64,000 bases of DNA from Minisyncoccota bacterium (GTDB lineage: Bacteria; Patescibacteriota; Minisyncoccia; Phycocordibacterales; UBA9973): contig JAGOSH010000001.1 in NCBI GenBank assembly GCA_018062425.1, positions 84,957 through 148,956 on the forward strand. Direction: 5' to 3'. A program made the position numbers and the translations under genes. The notes beneath the pieces are model-generated. The model had not been told where the DNA came from, ran no database searches, and saw nothing but the letters and a program-made list of their open reading frames with translations. Below, piece after piece: positions 7,648 through 61,716 of the stretch (positions within the stretch are counted from its first letter, which is position 1; each line of letters starts with the position of its first letter).

Positions 7648-7720
7648 GGTGCCTATGGTGTAGTGGTAACACAGAAGCTTGTGGAGCTTTTATCTCCGGT
7701 TCGAATCCGGATAGGCACCC
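7648..7720 (+). tRNA. tRNA-His (GTG anticodon at 7681-7683) with encoded G-1
   Basis: Acceptor GTGCCTA/TAGGCAC, extra 5' G at 7648 opposite C, T-arm GGTTCGAATCC, anticodon loop TTGTGGA; CCA not encoded. Confidence 0.9.
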
Positions 7721-50294: not shown

Positions 50295-53072
50295 ATGGAT
50301 TCGTTTTCTTTTAAAGGAATGCCAAAATTTAAAACTCCAGAAGAGGAGTTGGCTTTTTTGCGTGCACACGTAGCTGAAAAGGAGCAGGCTCTCATTGATA
50401 AGGGCCACTTTGAAAGTGCTAAAGAAAACGCAATTACCAGCACTATTTTAGAATACAAAAATGTGCCAGCGCAAGAAGCAGTCCACAAAGACAACCTGAT
50501 CCAAGAAAAAGAACAAGAAGGAATCGTACTAAAGTTAAAACCCGAGACCCATGATACTGTCATGGAAGAACTTTTGGGATTGCTTATAACAAAAGGCATC
50601 AGGAATGCTCTGGCTATTGTGGAATCAATGAATAATCCCCACGTAGACGATGACTTCCATAGGATACTTATTCAATATCTAAAAACTGGCCAATTGGCTG
50701 GTCTGCTCAAAGAAGGTACACCACTTTGGAAGTCACTAAACATGACACTTTTCGAAGTCACCTTACCACCACCGCACGACGAAGCCAGTAAATCAAAAGG
50801 ATTCAAAGAATTTATCGGAGCAATGGAGCAATTCTATGCTGGTATGCATTCGATCTCGGATGAGCCTAGAAATCTAAAAGAGAATTACTTTACACTAGAA
50901 ATTGCGCTATCGAGTTCTTCTGACGAGGTTATCATCTACGCGGCTGTTCCCAACAAACATTTGGCGTTGTTCGAGAAACAAGTTTTGGCTTTTTACCAAG
51001 ACGCTAAGGTTGTGGAGTCGACTAACGACTACAACATCTTCAACGATAACGGAGCGTCTGCTGGAGCGTATGGGGCCTTTGTTGAAAATTCTATTTTACC
51101 GATAAAGACATACGACAGCATCGACCACGATCCGATGAATACTATTTTGAATGTCTTCTCGAAACTAAAGACCAAGGGTGAGGGCGCGGCTATTCAGCTA
51201 GTTGTAGCACCAGCTGGAAATAAATTTATTCACGATTTCACCGAAATACTTCGTGATGTAAAAAAAGGTGATTCTATAAAACACGCTTCAAATAATTTTT
51301 ATAAGTTCCATTATGCTCTGTTCAATGCCGGGAAAGAGTTTTTTATGGACTCTAATAAGAAAGGTGAAGATGCTCCGATGCCAGGCAGGAGAACCGTGGA
51401 TGAAGGCGCGGCCGAGAAGATTTCTAATAAAATGAAAGCCAGCATCATGAAAGCAAATTTACGCGTCATTGCCTCTGCTGACACCAAAGAACGGGCAGAC
51501 GGAATACTAGCAGAAATAGAATCATCTTTTAACCAGTTCAACGAGCCAGCCAGCAATTCTTTTGTTTTTGAAAAGTTAAAGGGTAGTGATTTGAAGAAAC
51601 TTTTCCATGAATATTCTTATCGTGCTTTTAACGCAGATAAAACTTTGCCGATGAACTTAAAGGAGTTGGCCTCGGTTTTCCATTTCCCAGTAGGTATCGG
51701 CAGTCAACCAGCACTCAAGGAAGCCAAGGCTGGTATGGCGCCAGCACCTGTTGAATTGAGTGTTTTGGGTAGTAGTGACGGAATTATTTTGGGAGTGAAT
51801 GAATACCGTGGCAAAGAAACTACCATTCGAATGACCAAAGAAGACAGAATGCGACACATGTATGTTATCGGTCAGACTGGTACTGGTAAAACCACAATCC
51901 TAAAAAACATGATTTACCAAGATATCCAAAATGGTGATGGATGTTGTTTCATTGACCCGCACGGTACTGACATTCAGGATATACTTTCCTATGTTCCGAA
52001 AGAGCGCATAGATGACGTTATCTATTTCGACCCGGCATATACTGCGCGTCCGATGGGGCTTAATATGTTGGAGTACGATCCGAATTATCCAGAACAGAAA
52101 ACCTTTGTGGTGAACGAACTTATGGGTATATTCAACAAACTCTTCGACATGAAGGTGGGTGGTGGTGCTATGTTCGAACAGTACTTCCGAAACAGTGCTT
52201 TCCTGGTGATGGAAGACCCAGAATCCGGTTCTACTATGCTCGAGATTACTCGGGTATTGGCAGACAAAAAGTTCCGTGACATGAAACTGGCCAAGTGTAA
52301 GAACCCTATCATCAAGCAATTCTGGATTTCGGCGGAGGAGACTACAGGGGACCAGTCGTTGGCTAACTTCGTGCCGTATATTTCTTCTAAATTCGATAAC
52401 TTCATTTCCAACGATATTATGCGTCCGGTGGTTCTGCAACAAAATTCTGTGTTCAACTTCAGAAAAATAATGGATGAGAAGAAAATCCTTCTAGTGAATT
52501 TGTCCAAAGGAAGGCTGGGGGACATCAACGCGAATTTGATTGGTCTCGTGCTGGTTGGTAAAATCCAGATGGCGGCACTTTCTCGGGTGGATATGTTCGG
52601 AAAACCGATGAATGATTTCTATCTTTACATCGATGAATTCCAGAACGTCACCACAGACTCTATTGCGTCTATTTTATCTGAAGCTCGTAAATACAGACTT
52701 TCGCTTACTATTGCTCACCAATACATTTCTCAGCTCGAGGAAAGTATCAAGAATGCTGTTTTTGGTAACGTCGGTTCAATGGCTATATATCGTATTTCCA
52801 CCGAGGATGCCAACTTTGTCGAGCCTAAATTCAAACCTACTTTTTCCGCTAATGACATTACCAAGCTCGACAACTTTAATTCATATGTGAGTATGTTGGT
52901 CGGAGGACAGCCAGTGAAGCCTTTCTCCATGACTTCACACTGGAGTTTGGTAGCAAAAGGGAACAAAGAAGTCGTTGATGCCCTCAAAGAGCTATCTTAC
53001 ATGAAGTATGGCCGCCCACGTGAAGAAGTGGAGGAGGAAATAATGGGTAGATTTAACTCTTCGATGCAGTAG
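50295..53072 (+). CDS. VirD4/TraG/TraD-like (type IV coupling protein family) P-loop NTPase with a large novel N-terminal domain
   Basis: GQTGTGKTT Walker A, CCFIDPHG, YLYIDEFQN Walker B, ARKYRLSLTIAHQYISQL; no TM segment seen. Confidence 0.6.
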   Translation: MDSFSFKGMPKFKTPEEELAFLRAHVAEKEQALIDKGHFESAKENAITSTILEYKNVPAQEAVHKDNLIQEKEQEGIVLKLKPETHDTVMEELLGLLITKGIRNALAIVESMNNPHVDDDFHRILIQYLKTGQLAGLLKEGTPLWKSLNMTLFEVTLPPPHDEASKSKGFKEFIGAMEQFYAGMHSISDEPRNLKENYFTLEIALSSSSDEVIIYAAVPNKHLALFEKQVLAFYQDAKVVESTNDYNIFNDNGASAGAYGAFVENSILPIKTYDSIDHDPMNTILNVFSKLKTKGEGAAIQLVVAPAGNKFIHDFTEILRDVKKGDSIKHASNNFYKFHYALFNAGKEFFMDSNKKGEDAPMPGRRTVDEGAAEKISNKMKASIMKANLRVIASADTKERADGILAEIESSFNQFNEPASNSFVFEKLKGSDLKKLFHEYSYRAFNADKTLPMNLKELASVFHFPVGIGSQPALKEAKAGMAPAPVELSVLGSSDGIILGVNEYRGKETTIRMTKEDRMRHMYVIGQTGTGKTTILKNMIYQDIQNGDGCCFIDPHGTDIQDILSYVPKERIDDVIYFDPAYTARPMGLNMLEYDPNYPEQKTFVVNELMGIFNKLFDMKVGGGAMFEQYFRNSAFLVMEDPESGSTMLEITRVLADKKFRDMKLAKCKNPIIKQFWISAEETTGDQSLANFVPYISSKFDNFISNDIMRPVVLQQNSVFNFRKIMDEKKILLVNLSKGRLGDINANLIGLVLVGKIQMAALSRVDMFGKPMNDFYLYIDEFQNVTTDSIASILSEARKYRLSLTIAHQYISQLEESIKNAVFGNVGSMAIYRISTEDANFVEPKFKPTFSANDITKLDNFNSYVSMLVGGQPVKPFSMTSHWSLVAKGNKEVVDALKELSYMKYGRPREEVEEEIMGRFNSSMQ

Positions 53073-53137
53073 GTCTTTATTTGAATAATCACAGCATATC
53101 TGCTAAGATAGCGGTATTATTAACTATTTTTAAAGTT

Positions 53138-53653
53138 ATGCAGTTAGAACGTACACTTATTGTTTTTAAACCAGATGCTGTGTCTCGTGGGGTTGTTGGA
53201 GAAATTTTGGCTCGTTTTGAAAAAGTCGGGCTTAAAATTATTGGATCAAAAATGTTGAAACCAGATTATGATCACTTCTTTCATCACTACGAAAACATTG
53301 GCAAAGTTATATCTCGTCGCGGTCAGAAAGTTTTTGATATAACACTTGAAATGATGACCGCTGGTCCTGTTATTGCTTTTGTGCTTGAAGGTATTGAAGC
53401 AGCAGCTCTTGTACGCAAGATGGTTGGTGCCACTGAACCAAAGTCTGCATTGCCAGGGACTATTCGTGGAGATTATTCACACATTAGTTACGGTTATGCA
53501 GATCAAAACGAGGTAGGTATACCTAATTTGATTCACGCGTCTGGTGATGCAGAAGAGGCGAAACAAGAAATCGCTCACTGGTTCTCAGAAAATGAATTAT
53601 TTGATTACGAAACAGTGCACGAGAAGTTTACTCAAGTAAAAAAGAGAAACTAG
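53138..53653 (+). CDS. ndk: nucleoside diphosphate kinase (track ORF starts at TTG 53081)
   Basis: ERTLIVFKPDAV, GATEP..A.PGTIRGD and NLIHAS motifs. Confidence 0.92.
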   Translation: MQLERTLIVFKPDAVSRGVVGEILARFEKVGLKIIGSKMLKPDYDHFFHHYENIGKVISRRGQKVFDITLEMMTAGPVIAFVLEGIEAAALVRKMVGATEPKSALPGTIRGDYSHISYGYADQNEVGIPNLIHASGDAEEAKQEIAHWFSENELFDYETVHEKFTQVKKRN

Positions 53654-53740
53654 TTTCCTGTTGTCAACTTGTTTTTTAAATATTTTGTGTTTTTTTGAAA
53701 AATTTTCTTGCAAAATTTTTTACAGGATGTAATATGAAAG

Positions 53741-53908
53741 TAGGGTTATTTCAAATTATTACCTAGAACACTAATCTTCGGGAGGTTCGATCGGATGTGA
53801 CCTTGGTCACACACGTCTACCACCCACTTAGCTTAAAACGCTATGGTAATAAGTTAGAGATAGCCCTAAGAAGCAACCACCCATAGATAAATTCAGGGTG
53901 GTTTTTTC
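53741..53908 (+). ncRNA. stand-alone structured RNA, 6S-RNA-like architecture (unclassified)
   Basis: Promoter TTGCAA 53708-53713 -16- TAATAT 53730-53735; about 22-bp closing helix 53741-53766/53841-53868; central bubble; apical helix GTGACC/GGTCAC; terminator AACCACCC/GGGTGGTT plus T-run at 53875-53908. Confidence 0.45.
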
Positions 53909-53944
53909 TTTTGTGCCATTTATTTTAAATGATATAATTTTAAT

Positions 53945-54364
53945 ATGGACAAGAGGAAGCTTTTCAATCGGCAAGCATTACTGGTGGCAATCATTGCTCT
54001 TGTTAATTATGGCGCTATCAAGTTCCATTGGTACTATTCATTGTGGTGGTTTGATATGCCGATGCACTTTTTGGGTGGTATGTGGGTAGCCATGTTGTTA
54101 GCTTGGTATTTATCAGATGACCGGTTTTCAACTGATTCAGTAGGGCGGGTTATATTAGGTGCTTTTATAGTAGGTTTGTCTTGGGAAGTTTTCGAACTTT
54201 TGCTAAATGAGCAATTTGTACAGAACGCCTATGACCTGCCGGATACATTATCAGATATTTTCTTTGACCTCTCGGGAGCATTTACGGCAGTATTTTACGT
54301 AGCTTTACGTATTATGAATATTCCGGAAAGTGGGTTAAAATTCTACAATGCAGAAAAAAGTTAA
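53945..54364 (+). CDS. small polytopic membrane protein
   Basis: 4 hydrophobic segments; TGaTATAAT lies 6 nt before the ATG. Confidence 0.55.
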   Translation: MDKRKLFNRQALLVAIIALVNYGAIKFHWYYSLWWFDMPMHFLGGMWVAMLLAWYLSDDRFSTDSVGRVILGAFIVGLSWEVFELLLNEQFVQNAYDLPDTLSDIFFDLSGAFTAVFYVALRIMNIPESGLKFYNAEKS

Positions 54365-55712
54365 CATACAGTTTTGGGGTGGGGCTGGTTCGGTTACTGG
54401 CTCCAATTTTCTTTTAGAAATCGACGGTAAAAAAATCCTGATAGACTGTGGGCTCAATCAGGGTACCAAGATGGCGGACGATATAAACTGGGAGCCGTTT
54501 CAATACGCAGTTAATACTGTGGATATTCTTTTTGTTACTCACGCCCATGTTGACCACCTGGGTCGGGTGCCTAAACTAATTAGTGAAGGTTTCCAGGGGA
54601 AAATATATTCAACTCTACCAACCAAGTCACTTGCTCAGCCAATGATCGAGGACACGGCTTTTATTTTAGGGCACAACAGAGAATTCGACCTTGCAGAAAT
54701 TTATTCGGAAAGTAATATAAAAACCTCACTGTCTTTGTGGGAGGGTTTTCCTTATTACGAAAAGATTCAGATAACCGACAACTTATCTTTTACTTTCTAT
54801 AATGCTGGTCACATACTTGGCTCAGCTATGATTTTGTTTACCTACAACGGCAAAAATATTTTGTTCACTGGAGACCTGGGTAATAGCCCTTCGCCAATAT
54901 TGCCAGATACAGACAAGGTAGAAGGTGTGGACTATTTGATCATGGAATCCGTCTACGGAGATCGTAACCACGAGTCACGAGATGAGCGCAAGAAACTGTT
55001 AGAGTCGGTTATCGAAGACAACTTCAAACAAAAGGGTACACTACTCATACCCACCTTTTCTCTCGAGCGTTCCCAAGAACTTCTTTTTGAGCTCAATGAC
55101 TTGGTAGAGAATAGACGAATTCCGATCATGCCGATTTTCTTTGATTCACCGCTCGCCATAAAATTGACTGAAATCTTCAAGCAATACAAAGAATACTTTA
55201 ATGAAAGTGCCAAAGCCGCCATGGTTCACGACAAATACATTTTTGACTTTCCTGGGCTCCACACAACGCTCAAGACCGAAGAGTCAAAGGTTATTTTCAA
55301 ATACCCAGATCCGAAAGTCATCATCGCTGGTAGTGGTATGTCCTCTGGGGGGCGTATTGTGCACCACGAGAAAGAACACTTACCAAATCCAAACAACACC
55401 ATACTACTAACTGGTTACCAGTCTGCGGGAACATTGGGCAGGCTCATTCAAGAAGGGGTCAAGACTATTCGTATCGCCGGGGAAGAAGTAAAGGTCAAGG
55501 CCAAAGTAGTAACTATTATGGGTTACTCTGGACACAAAGATTCAGACGCACTGATTAACTTTGTAGAAGAAATGCAGGAGACACTCAAAAAAGTTTTTGT
55601 GGTCATGGGTGAACCGAAGTCTTCTTTGTTCCTAGCGCAAAAACTGAAAGACAACCTGGGTCTCGATGCCGAGACTCCAAACATGGGGGACAGTGTTACC
55701 TTGGAGTGGTAA
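54348..55712 (+). CDS. MBL-fold beta-CASP family (RNA-metabolising) metallo-hydrolase
   Basis: HAHVDHLG motif, beta-CASP-length insert, C-terminal GYSGHKD. Confidence 0.8.
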   Translation: MQKKVNIQFWGGAGSVTGSNFLLEIDGKKILIDCGLNQGTKMADDINWEPFQYAVNTVDILFVTHAHVDHLGRVPKLISEGFQGKIYSTLPTKSLAQPMIEDTAFILGHNREFDLAEIYSESNIKTSLSLWEGFPYYEKIQITDNLSFTFYNAGHILGSAMILFTYNGKNILFTGDLGNSPSPILPDTDKVEGVDYLIMESVYGDRNHESRDERKKLLESVIEDNFKQKGTLLIPTFSLERSQELLFELNDLVENRRIPIMPIFFDSPLAIKLTEIFKQYKEYFNESAKAAMVHDKYIFDFPGLHTTLKTEESKVIFKYPDPKVIIAGSGMSSGGRIVHHEKEHLPNPNNTILLTGYQSAGTLGRLIQEGVKTIRIAGEEVKVKAKVVTIMGYSGHKDSDALINFVEEMQETLKKVFVVMGEPKSSLFLAQKLKDNLGLDAETPNMGDSVTLEW

Positions 55713-60866: not shown

Positions 60867-61310
60867 ATGGCGACATATGCTGAAAACAAAAGAGCCCGGT
60901 TTGATTACGAGATCCAGGAGAAATACGAATGCGGTATCGAACTTTTGGGTACCGAGGTCAAAGCCGTCCGTAGTGGCAAAGTCTCCCTCTTGGGGTCTTT
61001 CGTCATCATCCGCGGAGGAGAAGCGTTTCTGATTAACGCTAATTTTCAACCATACCAAGAAGCCAATGCACCAAAGGATTATGACCCACTTCGAAATCGC
61101 AAACTACTTTTGACCAAAAAAGAAATCCGAGAATTGGCCGACACCGAGAAAAACAAAAGTTTGACGATAGTGGCTATTTCGTTGTATAGTAAAAACCGCA
61201 AAATCAAAATGGATATTGCGGTGGCGCGAGGTAAAAAGAAGTTCGACAAACGCGAAACTATCAAGAAGCGTGAAACGGATATAGAGCTTCGCCGTCAGTA
61301 TAAGAGGTAG
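60867..61310 (+). CDS. smpB: SsrA-binding protein SmpB
   Basis: ENKRARFDYEI... sequence; immediately upstream of the tmRNA. Confidence 0.95.
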   Translation: MATYAENKRARFDYEIQEKYECGIELLGTEVKAVRSGKVSLLGSFVIIRGGEAFLINANFQPYQEANAPKDYDPLRNRKLLLTKKEIRELADTEKNKSLTIVAISLYSKNRKIKMDIAVARGKKKFDKRETIKKRETDIELRRQYKR

Positions 61311-61329: not shown

Positions 61330-61711
61330 GGGACTGCAAGGCATAGACAGTAAGCCGTCGTGCTAGCAATGCATGTCGAGGATGAACGCACGCTCGTTAA
61401 TAAGCGTTCAAAGCCTAATTGCAAAATTAGCATCAGCTAAAGTATCTTCATACTTCAGTATGAAGGACTTTACTCCAGCGTACGCTTTAGCGTAACTGGC
61501 GTCTTCTCCATCGACTTCCGATGCATGGATGAAGGTGTAATATTATCGGGATAAGGAAGTACCTGCTCACACACTTCACGAAAATTTAGAGCTCGACCGA
61601 AAGATATTTTGTTCGTTTAATAATCTTTTGGTTTAAACATTTAAACCAACTAAACATGTAGATTTGCTGGCGCACCCTTTCTGCACGGGGATTCAATTTC
61701 CCCCAGTTCCA
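61330..61711 (+). ncRNA. ssrA: tmRNA (ssrA), one-piece
   Basis: Acceptor GGGACTG/CAGTTCC with a G3-U70 pair, T-arm GGGGATTCAATTTCCCC, internal tag frame ending ...PAYALA-TAA at 61493-61495. Confidence 0.85.
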
Positions 61712-61716
61712 CAACC

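Follow-up and report, generated by a model that had tools for sequence, protein, structure and literature searches.

The window that we analyzed is the whole 64,000-nucleotide (nt) stretch of contig JAGOSH010000001.1 presented above. Within the 291-nt gap that separates the gene for nucleoside diphosphate kinase (ndk, 53081 to 53653) from the gene for a DUF2238 membrane protein (53945 to 54364, + strand), it contains a gene for a structured RNA. The gene order at the locus is DUF8128/TraD-like ATPase, ndk, the gap with the RNA, DUF2238, a β-CASP ribonuclease (RNase), and a SLOG/TIGR00725 protein, and the flanking proteins point to a genome of the Paceibacteria ("Pacebacteria"), in the Patescibacteria or candidate phyla radiation (CPR). 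An earlier note on this DNA had proposed that a stand-alone structured RNA resembling 6S RNA is encoded here. Based on the promoter geometry, the terminator, and compensated helices in about 100 species, we regard a stand-alone structured RNA gene as nearly certain, and we conclude that it represents a previously undescribed family of rod-shaped RNAs of ~165 nt in the ultrasmall bacteria of the class Paceibacteria (Patescibacteria/CPR).

The region from 53742 to approximately 53908 on the + strand forms a separate transcription unit that is read from a sigma-70-type promoter of its own and stopped by an intrinsic terminator. The promoter that had been read at 53708 to 53735 (TTGCAA, a 16-nt spacer, TAATAT) consists of a −35 box at 53708 to 53713, which is invariant among close relatives, and a −10 box at 53730 to 53735. 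Across homologous loci, TTGC-type hexamers are the commonest −35 class, the 16-nt spacer is present in 91 of 99 loci, and a TAnnnT hexamer (most often TATACT or TATAAT) is found at −10 in 99 of 99 aligned loci. The end of the −10 box lies exactly 7 nt from the A of a UAGGG motif in 98 of 99 loci, which is the same distance to the start as that found for −10 boxes before leaderless ATGs in this genome. Based on this conserved promoter spacing and on the T-run of the terminator, we predict that transcription starts at the A of UAGGG (53742) and ends at about 53908. The predicted start coincides with the first pair of the closing stem described below. The promoter hexamers match the consensus at only 8 of 12 positions, and a simple promoter scanner did not list this promoter; we accept it as real because it is conserved in 99 of 99 homologous loci. 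An A/T-tract directly upstream (53678 to 53707, + strand; a T-run and then an A-run) resembles an UP element and may act as one, and T/A-tracts are conserved at this position in homologous loci.

The intrinsic terminator (53875 to 53912, + strand) is a hairpin in which AACCACCC (53875 to 53882) pairs with GGGUGGUU (53896 to 53903), followed by the T-run UUUUUUCUUUU. The simple scanner missed it because the loop is 13 nt long. The hairpin is variable, and a T-run follows it in 98 of 98 loci; its mean energy across homologous loci is −9.3 kcal/mol, and its stem sequence differs freely among species while the pairing is retained. Thus, both the promoter and the terminator that the earlier note had placed around the RNA are present, and the terminator arms fold as described there. 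Between the core of the RNA and the terminator is a single-stranded, A-rich linker (53869 to 53874, + strand). The UAAGAA motif that overlaps it (53867 to 53872) is ≥90% conserved in about 100 species (alignment A6) and could be a processing or protein-binding site.

No conserved reading frame was found in the RNA region, which is overlapped only by short, unconserved open reading frames (ORFs), and substitutions in the RNA core track base pairing rather than codons. A small candidate ORF of 10 codons (MKVGLFQIIT, ATG at 53734) was rejected, since its ATG lies inside the −10 box and is missing in relatives.

The RNA is predicted to fold into a single rod. The minimum free energy (MFE) of a 171-nt stretch is −61.6 kcal/mol, compared with −34.4 ± 3.9 kcal/mol for 200 dinucleotide shuffles (z = −6.96), and none of the 200 shuffles folds as well. 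The 5′ end of the RNA had been proposed to pair with 53841 to 53868 as a closing stem, and this is confirmed both by the MFE structure and by compensatory changes. The outer part of the stem, P1a, is 12 bp long (53741 to 53752 with 53857 to 53868, + strand) and shows G-C to C-G, G-C to A-U, and C-G to U-A replacements. The part adjacent to the central bubble, P1b, has ~10 bp, in which the 5′ strand UUAUUACCUAG (53756 to 53766, + strand) pairs with 53841 to 53852, with U53844 bulged. P1b is nearly invariant, with 99.7% of cells paired and a rare A-U to G-C compensation in one locus (L095). The 3′ strands of P1b and P1a, CUAuGGUAAUAA ... GAGAUAGCCCUA, occupy 53841 to 53868 on the + strand.

The closing stem leads into the two-sided bubble that had been estimated at about 13 and 15 nt. 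Its 5′ side (53767 to 53779, 13 nt, + strand) consists of AACA(C/A) and a U-rich spacer (alignments A4 and A6) that keeps a constant length of 12 to 14 nt, and its 3′ side (53826 to 53840, 15 nt, + strand) contains the invariant sequence CCCAC-N-UAGC. Within the 3′ side, UAGC (53829 to 53832) can pair with GCUA (53840 to 53843) to form a mini-hairpin that excludes an extension of P1b. This hairpin is possible in 97% of cells and, since it is invariant, is without covariation; one locus (L035) has a shifted CCUG/CAGG hairpin instead. Above the bubble, the apical helix that had been described as GGGAGGT/ACCACCC with GTGACC-TT-GGTCAC is found in the terminal arm at 53780 to 53825 (+ strand), where the inner part reads GUGACC-UUGG-GGUCAC. 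The consensus of this arm is GGG-A-GNN..., with a conserved A-A mismatch, a GAUC/GUCU internal loop, and a C(YKUG)G loop. It is the variable part of the molecule and is 25 to 35 nt longer in several clades, and all length variants, including those with extended arms, fold as one continuous rod. The core is 131 to 167 nt long, or ~165 to 205 nt with the terminator hairpin. We also considered a kink-turn in the GAUC/GUCU loop, which was judged by eye and rejected since the motif is not conserved or does not fit and no Rfam match lies behind it.

Comparative analysis strongly supports this fold. Loci with DUF2238 homologues of 46 to 92% identity all retain an upstream gap of ~265 to 310 nt, and when these gaps are aligned, the promoter is invariant, the core is highly conserved, and the terminator arms differ yet remain complementary. 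In a 30-sequence alignment, RNAalifold predicts 41 consensus pairs, 13 of which show compensatory changes. The covariance model built from this alignment recovers the RNA from about 100 loci of Paceibacteria/Nomurabacteria and in each case on the same strand. In the protein-anchored set (GTDB species-representative loci with DUF2238 as the anchor), it locates the RNA just upstream of DUF2238 in essentially all 80 loci with room for it. Scores are 65 to 153 bits on the + strand and at most 53 bits on the − strand, and many of the G-U pairs are possible on the + strand only.

The significance of the covariation was judged by shuffle and slide controls. Among 98 distinct sequences, standard pairs occur in 95.2% of cells, compared with 85.4% after shuffling, and sliding the partners by 1 to 3 columns lowers pairing to 30 to 46% of cells; 23 of the 41 pairs have changes on both sides. 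A ranking of column pairs that is blind to structure, by mutual information with average product correction (MI-APC), places all of its top 12 pairs within predicted helices. The strongest covariation and the highest MI-APC pairs are both in the apical arm. The same MI-APC scan gave no convincing pseudoknot or tertiary pairing, the best nonhelix pairs (≤0.36) lying beside the apical stem. The mean pairwise identity of the core is 75%, and 45 of 132 core columns, among them both strands of P1b, are at least 97% invariant. Conservation peaks in the closing stem, in P1b (UUAUUACCUAG/CUAuGGUAAUA), and in the bubble nucleotides (AACA and CCCAC-N-UAGC). The comparison of homologous loci that the earlier note had named as a check was therefore carried out with both RNAalifold and the covariance model, and the fold is supported by covariation.

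One structural detail of the earlier note fared differently. It had pointed out that ACCACCC occurs twice, at 53819 to 53825 and at 53876 to 53882, and that alternative folds might result. Both copies are present, but an alternative fold through the second copy is a quirk of this one sequence; it is absent in relatives, and the terminator arms differ freely among species and do not covary with the core.

This RNA does not correspond to a family in Rfam. A scan of the 64-kb window against Rfam 15 gave no RNA family match at gathering score for this RNA, and at E ≤ 10, no family matched either 53600 to 54000 (401 nt) or 12 homologous loci from both clades; thus, there is no confident match to another family. 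Weak Rfam matches (ctRNA_p42d, RefA9, and similar models) cover only the terminator and were set aside. Several known RNAs were considered individually and rejected. The domain IV motifs of signal recognition particle (SRP) RNA, as in the E. coli 4.5S sequence, are a GNRA/GGAA loop and an AGCA-type symmetric loop. The apex of the present RNA is its most variable part and ends in the C(YKUG)G loop, and there is no Rfam match to SRP RNA. 5S rRNA, judged by eye, does not fit and has no Rfam match, and a tRNA-like T-loop ("GGUUCGAUC") is a resemblance that is not conserved and likewise has no Rfam match. In a search of the literature on CPR bacteria, we found no report of a 6S RNA and no survey of structured RNAs. 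We conclude that the family is new to the databases searched and that its kind, a stand-alone structured bacterial noncoding RNA (ncRNA) that is possibly 6S-like, is already known. The closest parallels in this respect are orphan ncRNA motifs such as raiA and the lineage-named motifs of Weinberg et al. (2010), which are also lineage restricted, supported by covariation, independently terminated, and without an assigned function; the present family differs in that it is absent from Rfam 15 and comes from the CPR.

The genes around the RNA bear on what it might do. Upstream of ndk in nearly all related loci is the gene for a 925-aa DUF8128/TraD-VirD4-like coupling ATPase (50295 to 53072, + strand). 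Downstream is a conserved operon (53945 to 55712, + strand) that consists of DUF2238, which is a family assignment and is missing from some clades, and the gene for a CPSF73/TTHA0252-like β-CASP metallo-β-lactamase RNase (54348 to 55712, + strand). The β-CASP protein is closest to Thermus TTHA0252 (E = 3.6e-80) and is also related to archaeal aCPSF1/FttA, eukaryotic CPSF73/INTS11, and Cas14. Among NCBIfam models, that of the type VII CRISPR nuclease Cas14 scores best, with 400 bits against a cutoff of 800 bits and with a match limited to the N-terminal 436 of 612 positions; the next model is archaeal aCPSF1. No CRISPR array and no Cas7 or Cas5 gene was found near the β-CASP gene. More than 7,999 homologues of the protein fall below E = 1e-20, and the 120 matches listed are all at least 71% identical to it. 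An attempt to reach other CPR classes through these homologues failed, since the top 120 listed are only close (≥71% identical) relatives within the Paceibacteria.

The protein-anchored search had suggested that the RNA is strictly linked to DUF2238. A search of metagenome contigs with an RNA-only sequence pattern, which uses no protein anchor, yielded 80 further loci and disproved this: among the 74 of these loci with room, DUF2238 is the next gene in 53, and in the other 21, the RNA is directly upstream of the β-CASP gene. The constant neighbor is the β-CASP gene: among the 51 pattern-anchored loci with enough sequence, 50 have it in the same orientation no more than 1.1 kb downstream, and the β-CASP operon also follows the RNA in all 80 protein-anchored loci with room. 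The single exception (L102:1653-2093, − strand) is on a chimeric contig that still carries the N terminus of the enzyme, so that the linkage is effectively 51 of 51; in this contig, the first ~38 β-CASP residues are fused to GC-rich sequence of another organism. In contrast to the constant downstream side, the upstream neighbor varies. In 23 of 57 loci, ndk is the immediate neighbor on that side, and in the others, HD, CYTH, HAD, or HicAB-like genes lie between. At one such locus (L119:710-1172), two small HicB/HicA-like ORFs (assigned by eye) and other genes separate ndk and the RNA, a sequence arrangement that marks the upstream side of the RNA gene as a permissive insertion site.

With so constant a downstream operon, the RNA might be a cis-regulatory leader, either a riboswitch or attenuator whose terminator sets read-through into the DUF2238/β-CASP/SLOG operon or an autoregulatory 5′ leader that is cleaved by the RNase. 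The order of promoter, conserved junction-rich fold, terminator, and gene is like that of a transcriptional riboswitch, and a read-through transcript could still be translated, given that the operon-internal genes are translated without Shine-Dalgarno (SD) motifs. In this one sequence, GGGAGGUU can also pair with either copy of ACCACCC. Terminating riboswitches and RNase autoregulatory leaders such as the rne 5′ untranslated region share with this locus the succession of a promoter, a conserved fold with invariant junction nucleotides, an intrinsic terminator, and a constant operon that encodes an RNase. However, the next gene has its own promoter, as the earlier note had argued against a riboswitch: an extended −10 element, TGaTATAAT (53930 to 53938, + strand), lies outside the RNA and 6 nt before the ATG at 53945, and in homologous loci of all clades, a TATAAT is kept 5 to 9 nt before the ATG. 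This is the standard leaderless layout of the genome. No SD motif was found before ~60 gene starts of the window, and TATAAT lies 6 to 9 nt before the ATG at many first genes (e.g., 1010, 7783, 10973, 27548, 50295, 55731, and 59604); because of these two features, leaderless mRNAs seem to be the norm in this genome.

Further evidence also separates the RNA from the downstream operon. In several species, insertions of 100 to 130 nt part the terminator from the downstream promoter, and clades differ in whether DUF2238 or β-CASP comes first downstream. The terminator arms have not coevolved with the core: the 5′ arm pairs with its own core at −5.2 kcal/mol and with other cores at −5.5 kcal/mol, and the 3′ arm pairs at −6.6 and −6.5 kcal/mol, respectively, so that no coevolving antiterminator is apparent. 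The closing stem, which is 23 bp long and stable, is separate from and independent of the terminator, leaving no obvious switch. Because of the downstream promoter, the tolerated insertions, the varying first gene, and the lack of arm-core coevolution, we reject a riboswitch or attenuator for this RNA gene and consider a cis-regulatory leader of any kind very improbable. Insertions between the RNA terminator and the downstream promoter were seen at L050, L082, and L024 and also at L141, L145, L149, and L154. Some of them resemble miniature inverted-repeat transposable elements (inverted repeats ACCCGGTAGTGA...TCACTACCGGGT) and are common to different species.

We infer instead that the RNA acts in trans as a protein-binding RNA, and the best explanation of the features described above, as read from the sequence, is a stable rod-shaped ncRNA. 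The constancy of the adjacent gene raises the question of whether its partner is the CPSF73/TTHA0252-like β-CASP RNase, with the RNA serving as a substrate, as a decoy or titrator by which RNase activity is set, or as a cofactor. The neighbor is, by family assignment, a bona fide RNA-specific β-CASP enzyme. It was found downstream in loci that were identified by the RNA pattern alone, and the linkage outlasts the loss of DUF2238 and is kept in a second clade whose apical arm differs, and the upstream side changes. The invariant helices and linker fit sequence-specific recognition by a protein, and under such a coupling, the RNA might be matured by the enzyme at the UAAGAA linker. There is precedent for contact between the two kinds of molecule, in that a β-CASP RNase of B. 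subtilis, RNase J1, matures and degrades 6S RNAs (PMC10578484). On the other hand, the whole block of DUF8128, ndk, RNA, β-CASP, SLOG, and L20/L35/IF3 is kept in these reduced genomes, and the adjacency may simply be inherited. The RNA and the RNase are also separate units, each with its own promoter and with a strong terminator between them, and no complementarity or shared regulatory element was found. We consider functional coupling to the RNase unlikely. A stricter form, in which a dedicated RNA partner would guide, gate, or titrate the CPSF73-family nuclease, is quite improbable, although the 51-of-51 linkage, the invariant helices, and the invariant single-stranded linker are compatible with it. 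By analogy, such a pair would be conceptually akin to U7 snRNA-CPSF73 or to the crRNA-β-CASP Cas14 pair of type VII CRISPR and could serve RNA 3′-end formation or termination, as archaeal FttA/aCPSF1 does.

Of the mechanisms considered, a 6S-type decoy of RNA polymerase is the likeliest, and we put it forward tentatively. The likeness to 6S RNA (ssrS; RF00013 and RF01685) that the earlier note had noticed holds for the architecture. The present RNA is a stand-alone noncoding rod with a closing stem, a two-sided bubble, and a terminal stem-loop in both the MFE and the consensus structures, and it is a gene in its own right, not a leader of the downstream gene, flanked in about 99 loci by a promoter and a terminator that belong to it. 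Each locus carries a single copy, whose promoter looks strong. The gene context has a parallel as well: in E. coli, the 6S RNA gene is tightly linked to a downstream protein gene (ssrS-ygfA) and is not its leader. The likeness does not extend to the covariance models: RF00013 (6S) and RF01685 (6S-Flavo) matched neither the window nor the 12 homologous loci, whether the gathering score or E ≤ 10 served as the threshold. Assignment to the 6S family would be premature, since homology to known 6S RNAs was not found and the biochemical hallmarks of the family lie beyond computation. Divergent 6S RNAs have been missed by homology searches before, 6S-Flavo being the precedent (PMC2864571).

As a 6S-type decoy, the rod with its bubble of 13 plus 15 nt would fill the active-site cleft of the RNA polymerase holoenzyme as a mimic of an open promoter. 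A short product RNA would be copied from the invariant 5′ strand (UUAUUACCUAGAACA), the 5′ strand of P1b being the candidate template, and the predicted product would be an antisense RNA beginning 5′-(A)GUGUUCUAGGUAAUAA.... This product would unzip P1b, while the 12 bp of the outer P1a would hold the ends together. The freed GCUA would then pair with the UAGC of the 3′ bubble, and this refolding would release the polymerase. The sequences permit such a switch: GCUA has two possible partners, CCUAG or UAGC, each of which is possible in 97 to 99.7% of cells. Among 99 free-state MFE structures, 55 have the P1b extension and 41 have the hairpin. With 14 nt of the 5′ strand made unavailable for pairing, the 3′-bubble hairpin forms in 90 of 99 sequences, in a simulation that is close to trivial. 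This model suggests that the mutually exclusive pairing could serve as a release switch, as a conserved possibility. The competition between this 3′-bubble hairpin and the bubble-proximal part of the closing stem resembles the rearrangements, driven by product RNA, that have been described for the 6S RNAs of E. coli and B. subtilis (PMC8876501).

Several observations weigh against a 6S-type decoy, in addition to the lack of any covariance-model similarity. The near-trivial nature of the refolding simulation is one. The switch helices are invariant, and covariation therefore neither supports nor refutes them. The apical arm has only ~20 bp-equivalents in most members and may be too short to reach the "−35" contact. 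The invariance of the core (45 of 132 columns) is unusual, since 6S RNAs are conserved mainly in shape; this may be a sign that some other factor recognizes the sequence specifically. Another partner is also suggested by how strictly the gene is linked to the β-CASP operon. A further difference from 6S RNA is that the terminator hairpin directly follows the closing stem. Finally, the core of 131 to 167 nt is shorter than that of a typical 6S RNA at roughly 180 to 200 nt, the usual length being given as ~200 nt (PMC8876501). Truncated 6S-1 RNAs of 78 to 82 nt still complete the 6S cycle in vitro (PMC8876501).

It is also conceivable, and somewhat unlikely in our estimate, that the RNA has some other role in trans, either as a scaffold or decoy for another protein, like Y RNA, or as a base-pairing small RNA. 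A stand-alone gene with a terminator fits any trans-acting RNA, and an invariant basal stem and junction below a variable, expandable apex, together with the lack of a match to any known family in Rfam, are consistent with such a role. In their general anatomy, Y RNAs and YrlA have 5′ and 3′ ends that pair into a highly conserved basal stem, a variable upper part, a large internal loop, and a size of 100 to 200 nt, all of which this RNA shares. In contrast, it has no Rfam Y_RNA match, no Ro/TROVE gene lies nearby, and there is no tRNA-like module, the resemblance mentioned above being unconserved; ARAGORN-type features were not sought. A base-pairing RNA would use the conserved single-stranded CUAGAACA or CCCAC stretches, but the conserved single-stranded stretches are short (5 to 8 nt), and there is no Hfq-type gene in the neighborhood. 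For neither variant was a candidate partner or target identified, and the idea is unspecific and hard to test by computation.

Other features of the window and of related contigs were recorded along the way. The sequence GTCAACTTGTTTTTT (53663 to 53677), right after the ndk stop codon, is invariant across nine related loci; neither a hairpin nor a promoter (checked on either strand) fits it, and it is unexplained. A tRNA lies at 7649 to 7719, and a tmRNA gene (126.7 bits) lies at 61330 to 61714 (+ strand), directly preceded by an ORF of 147 aa (60867 to 61310) whose counterpart in homologous loci is SmpB. In a related Paceibacteria contig (L014:1-9053), an ORF of more than 10,000 residues (10,543 aa called) is upstream of ndk.

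Much of bacterial diversity belongs to the Patescibacteria (CPR), and regulatory RNAs in this group are almost uncharted. The family described here is easily recognized: about 100 sequences, a covariance model, and exact unit boundaries are available, which makes it fit for Rfam and makes its annotation possible in thousands of metagenome-assembled genomes. If it is the 6S RNA of the Paceibacteria, global control of RNA polymerase by an RNA decoy would persist even where bacterial genomes are among the smallest, with an RNA that is unusually compact and invariant in sequence. If it is instead a partner of the CPSF73-like RNase, it would represent a new RNA-dependent step in bacterial RNA processing or termination. 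On either reading, the RNA is a concrete, testable target for the few Paceibacteria that are now in coculture.

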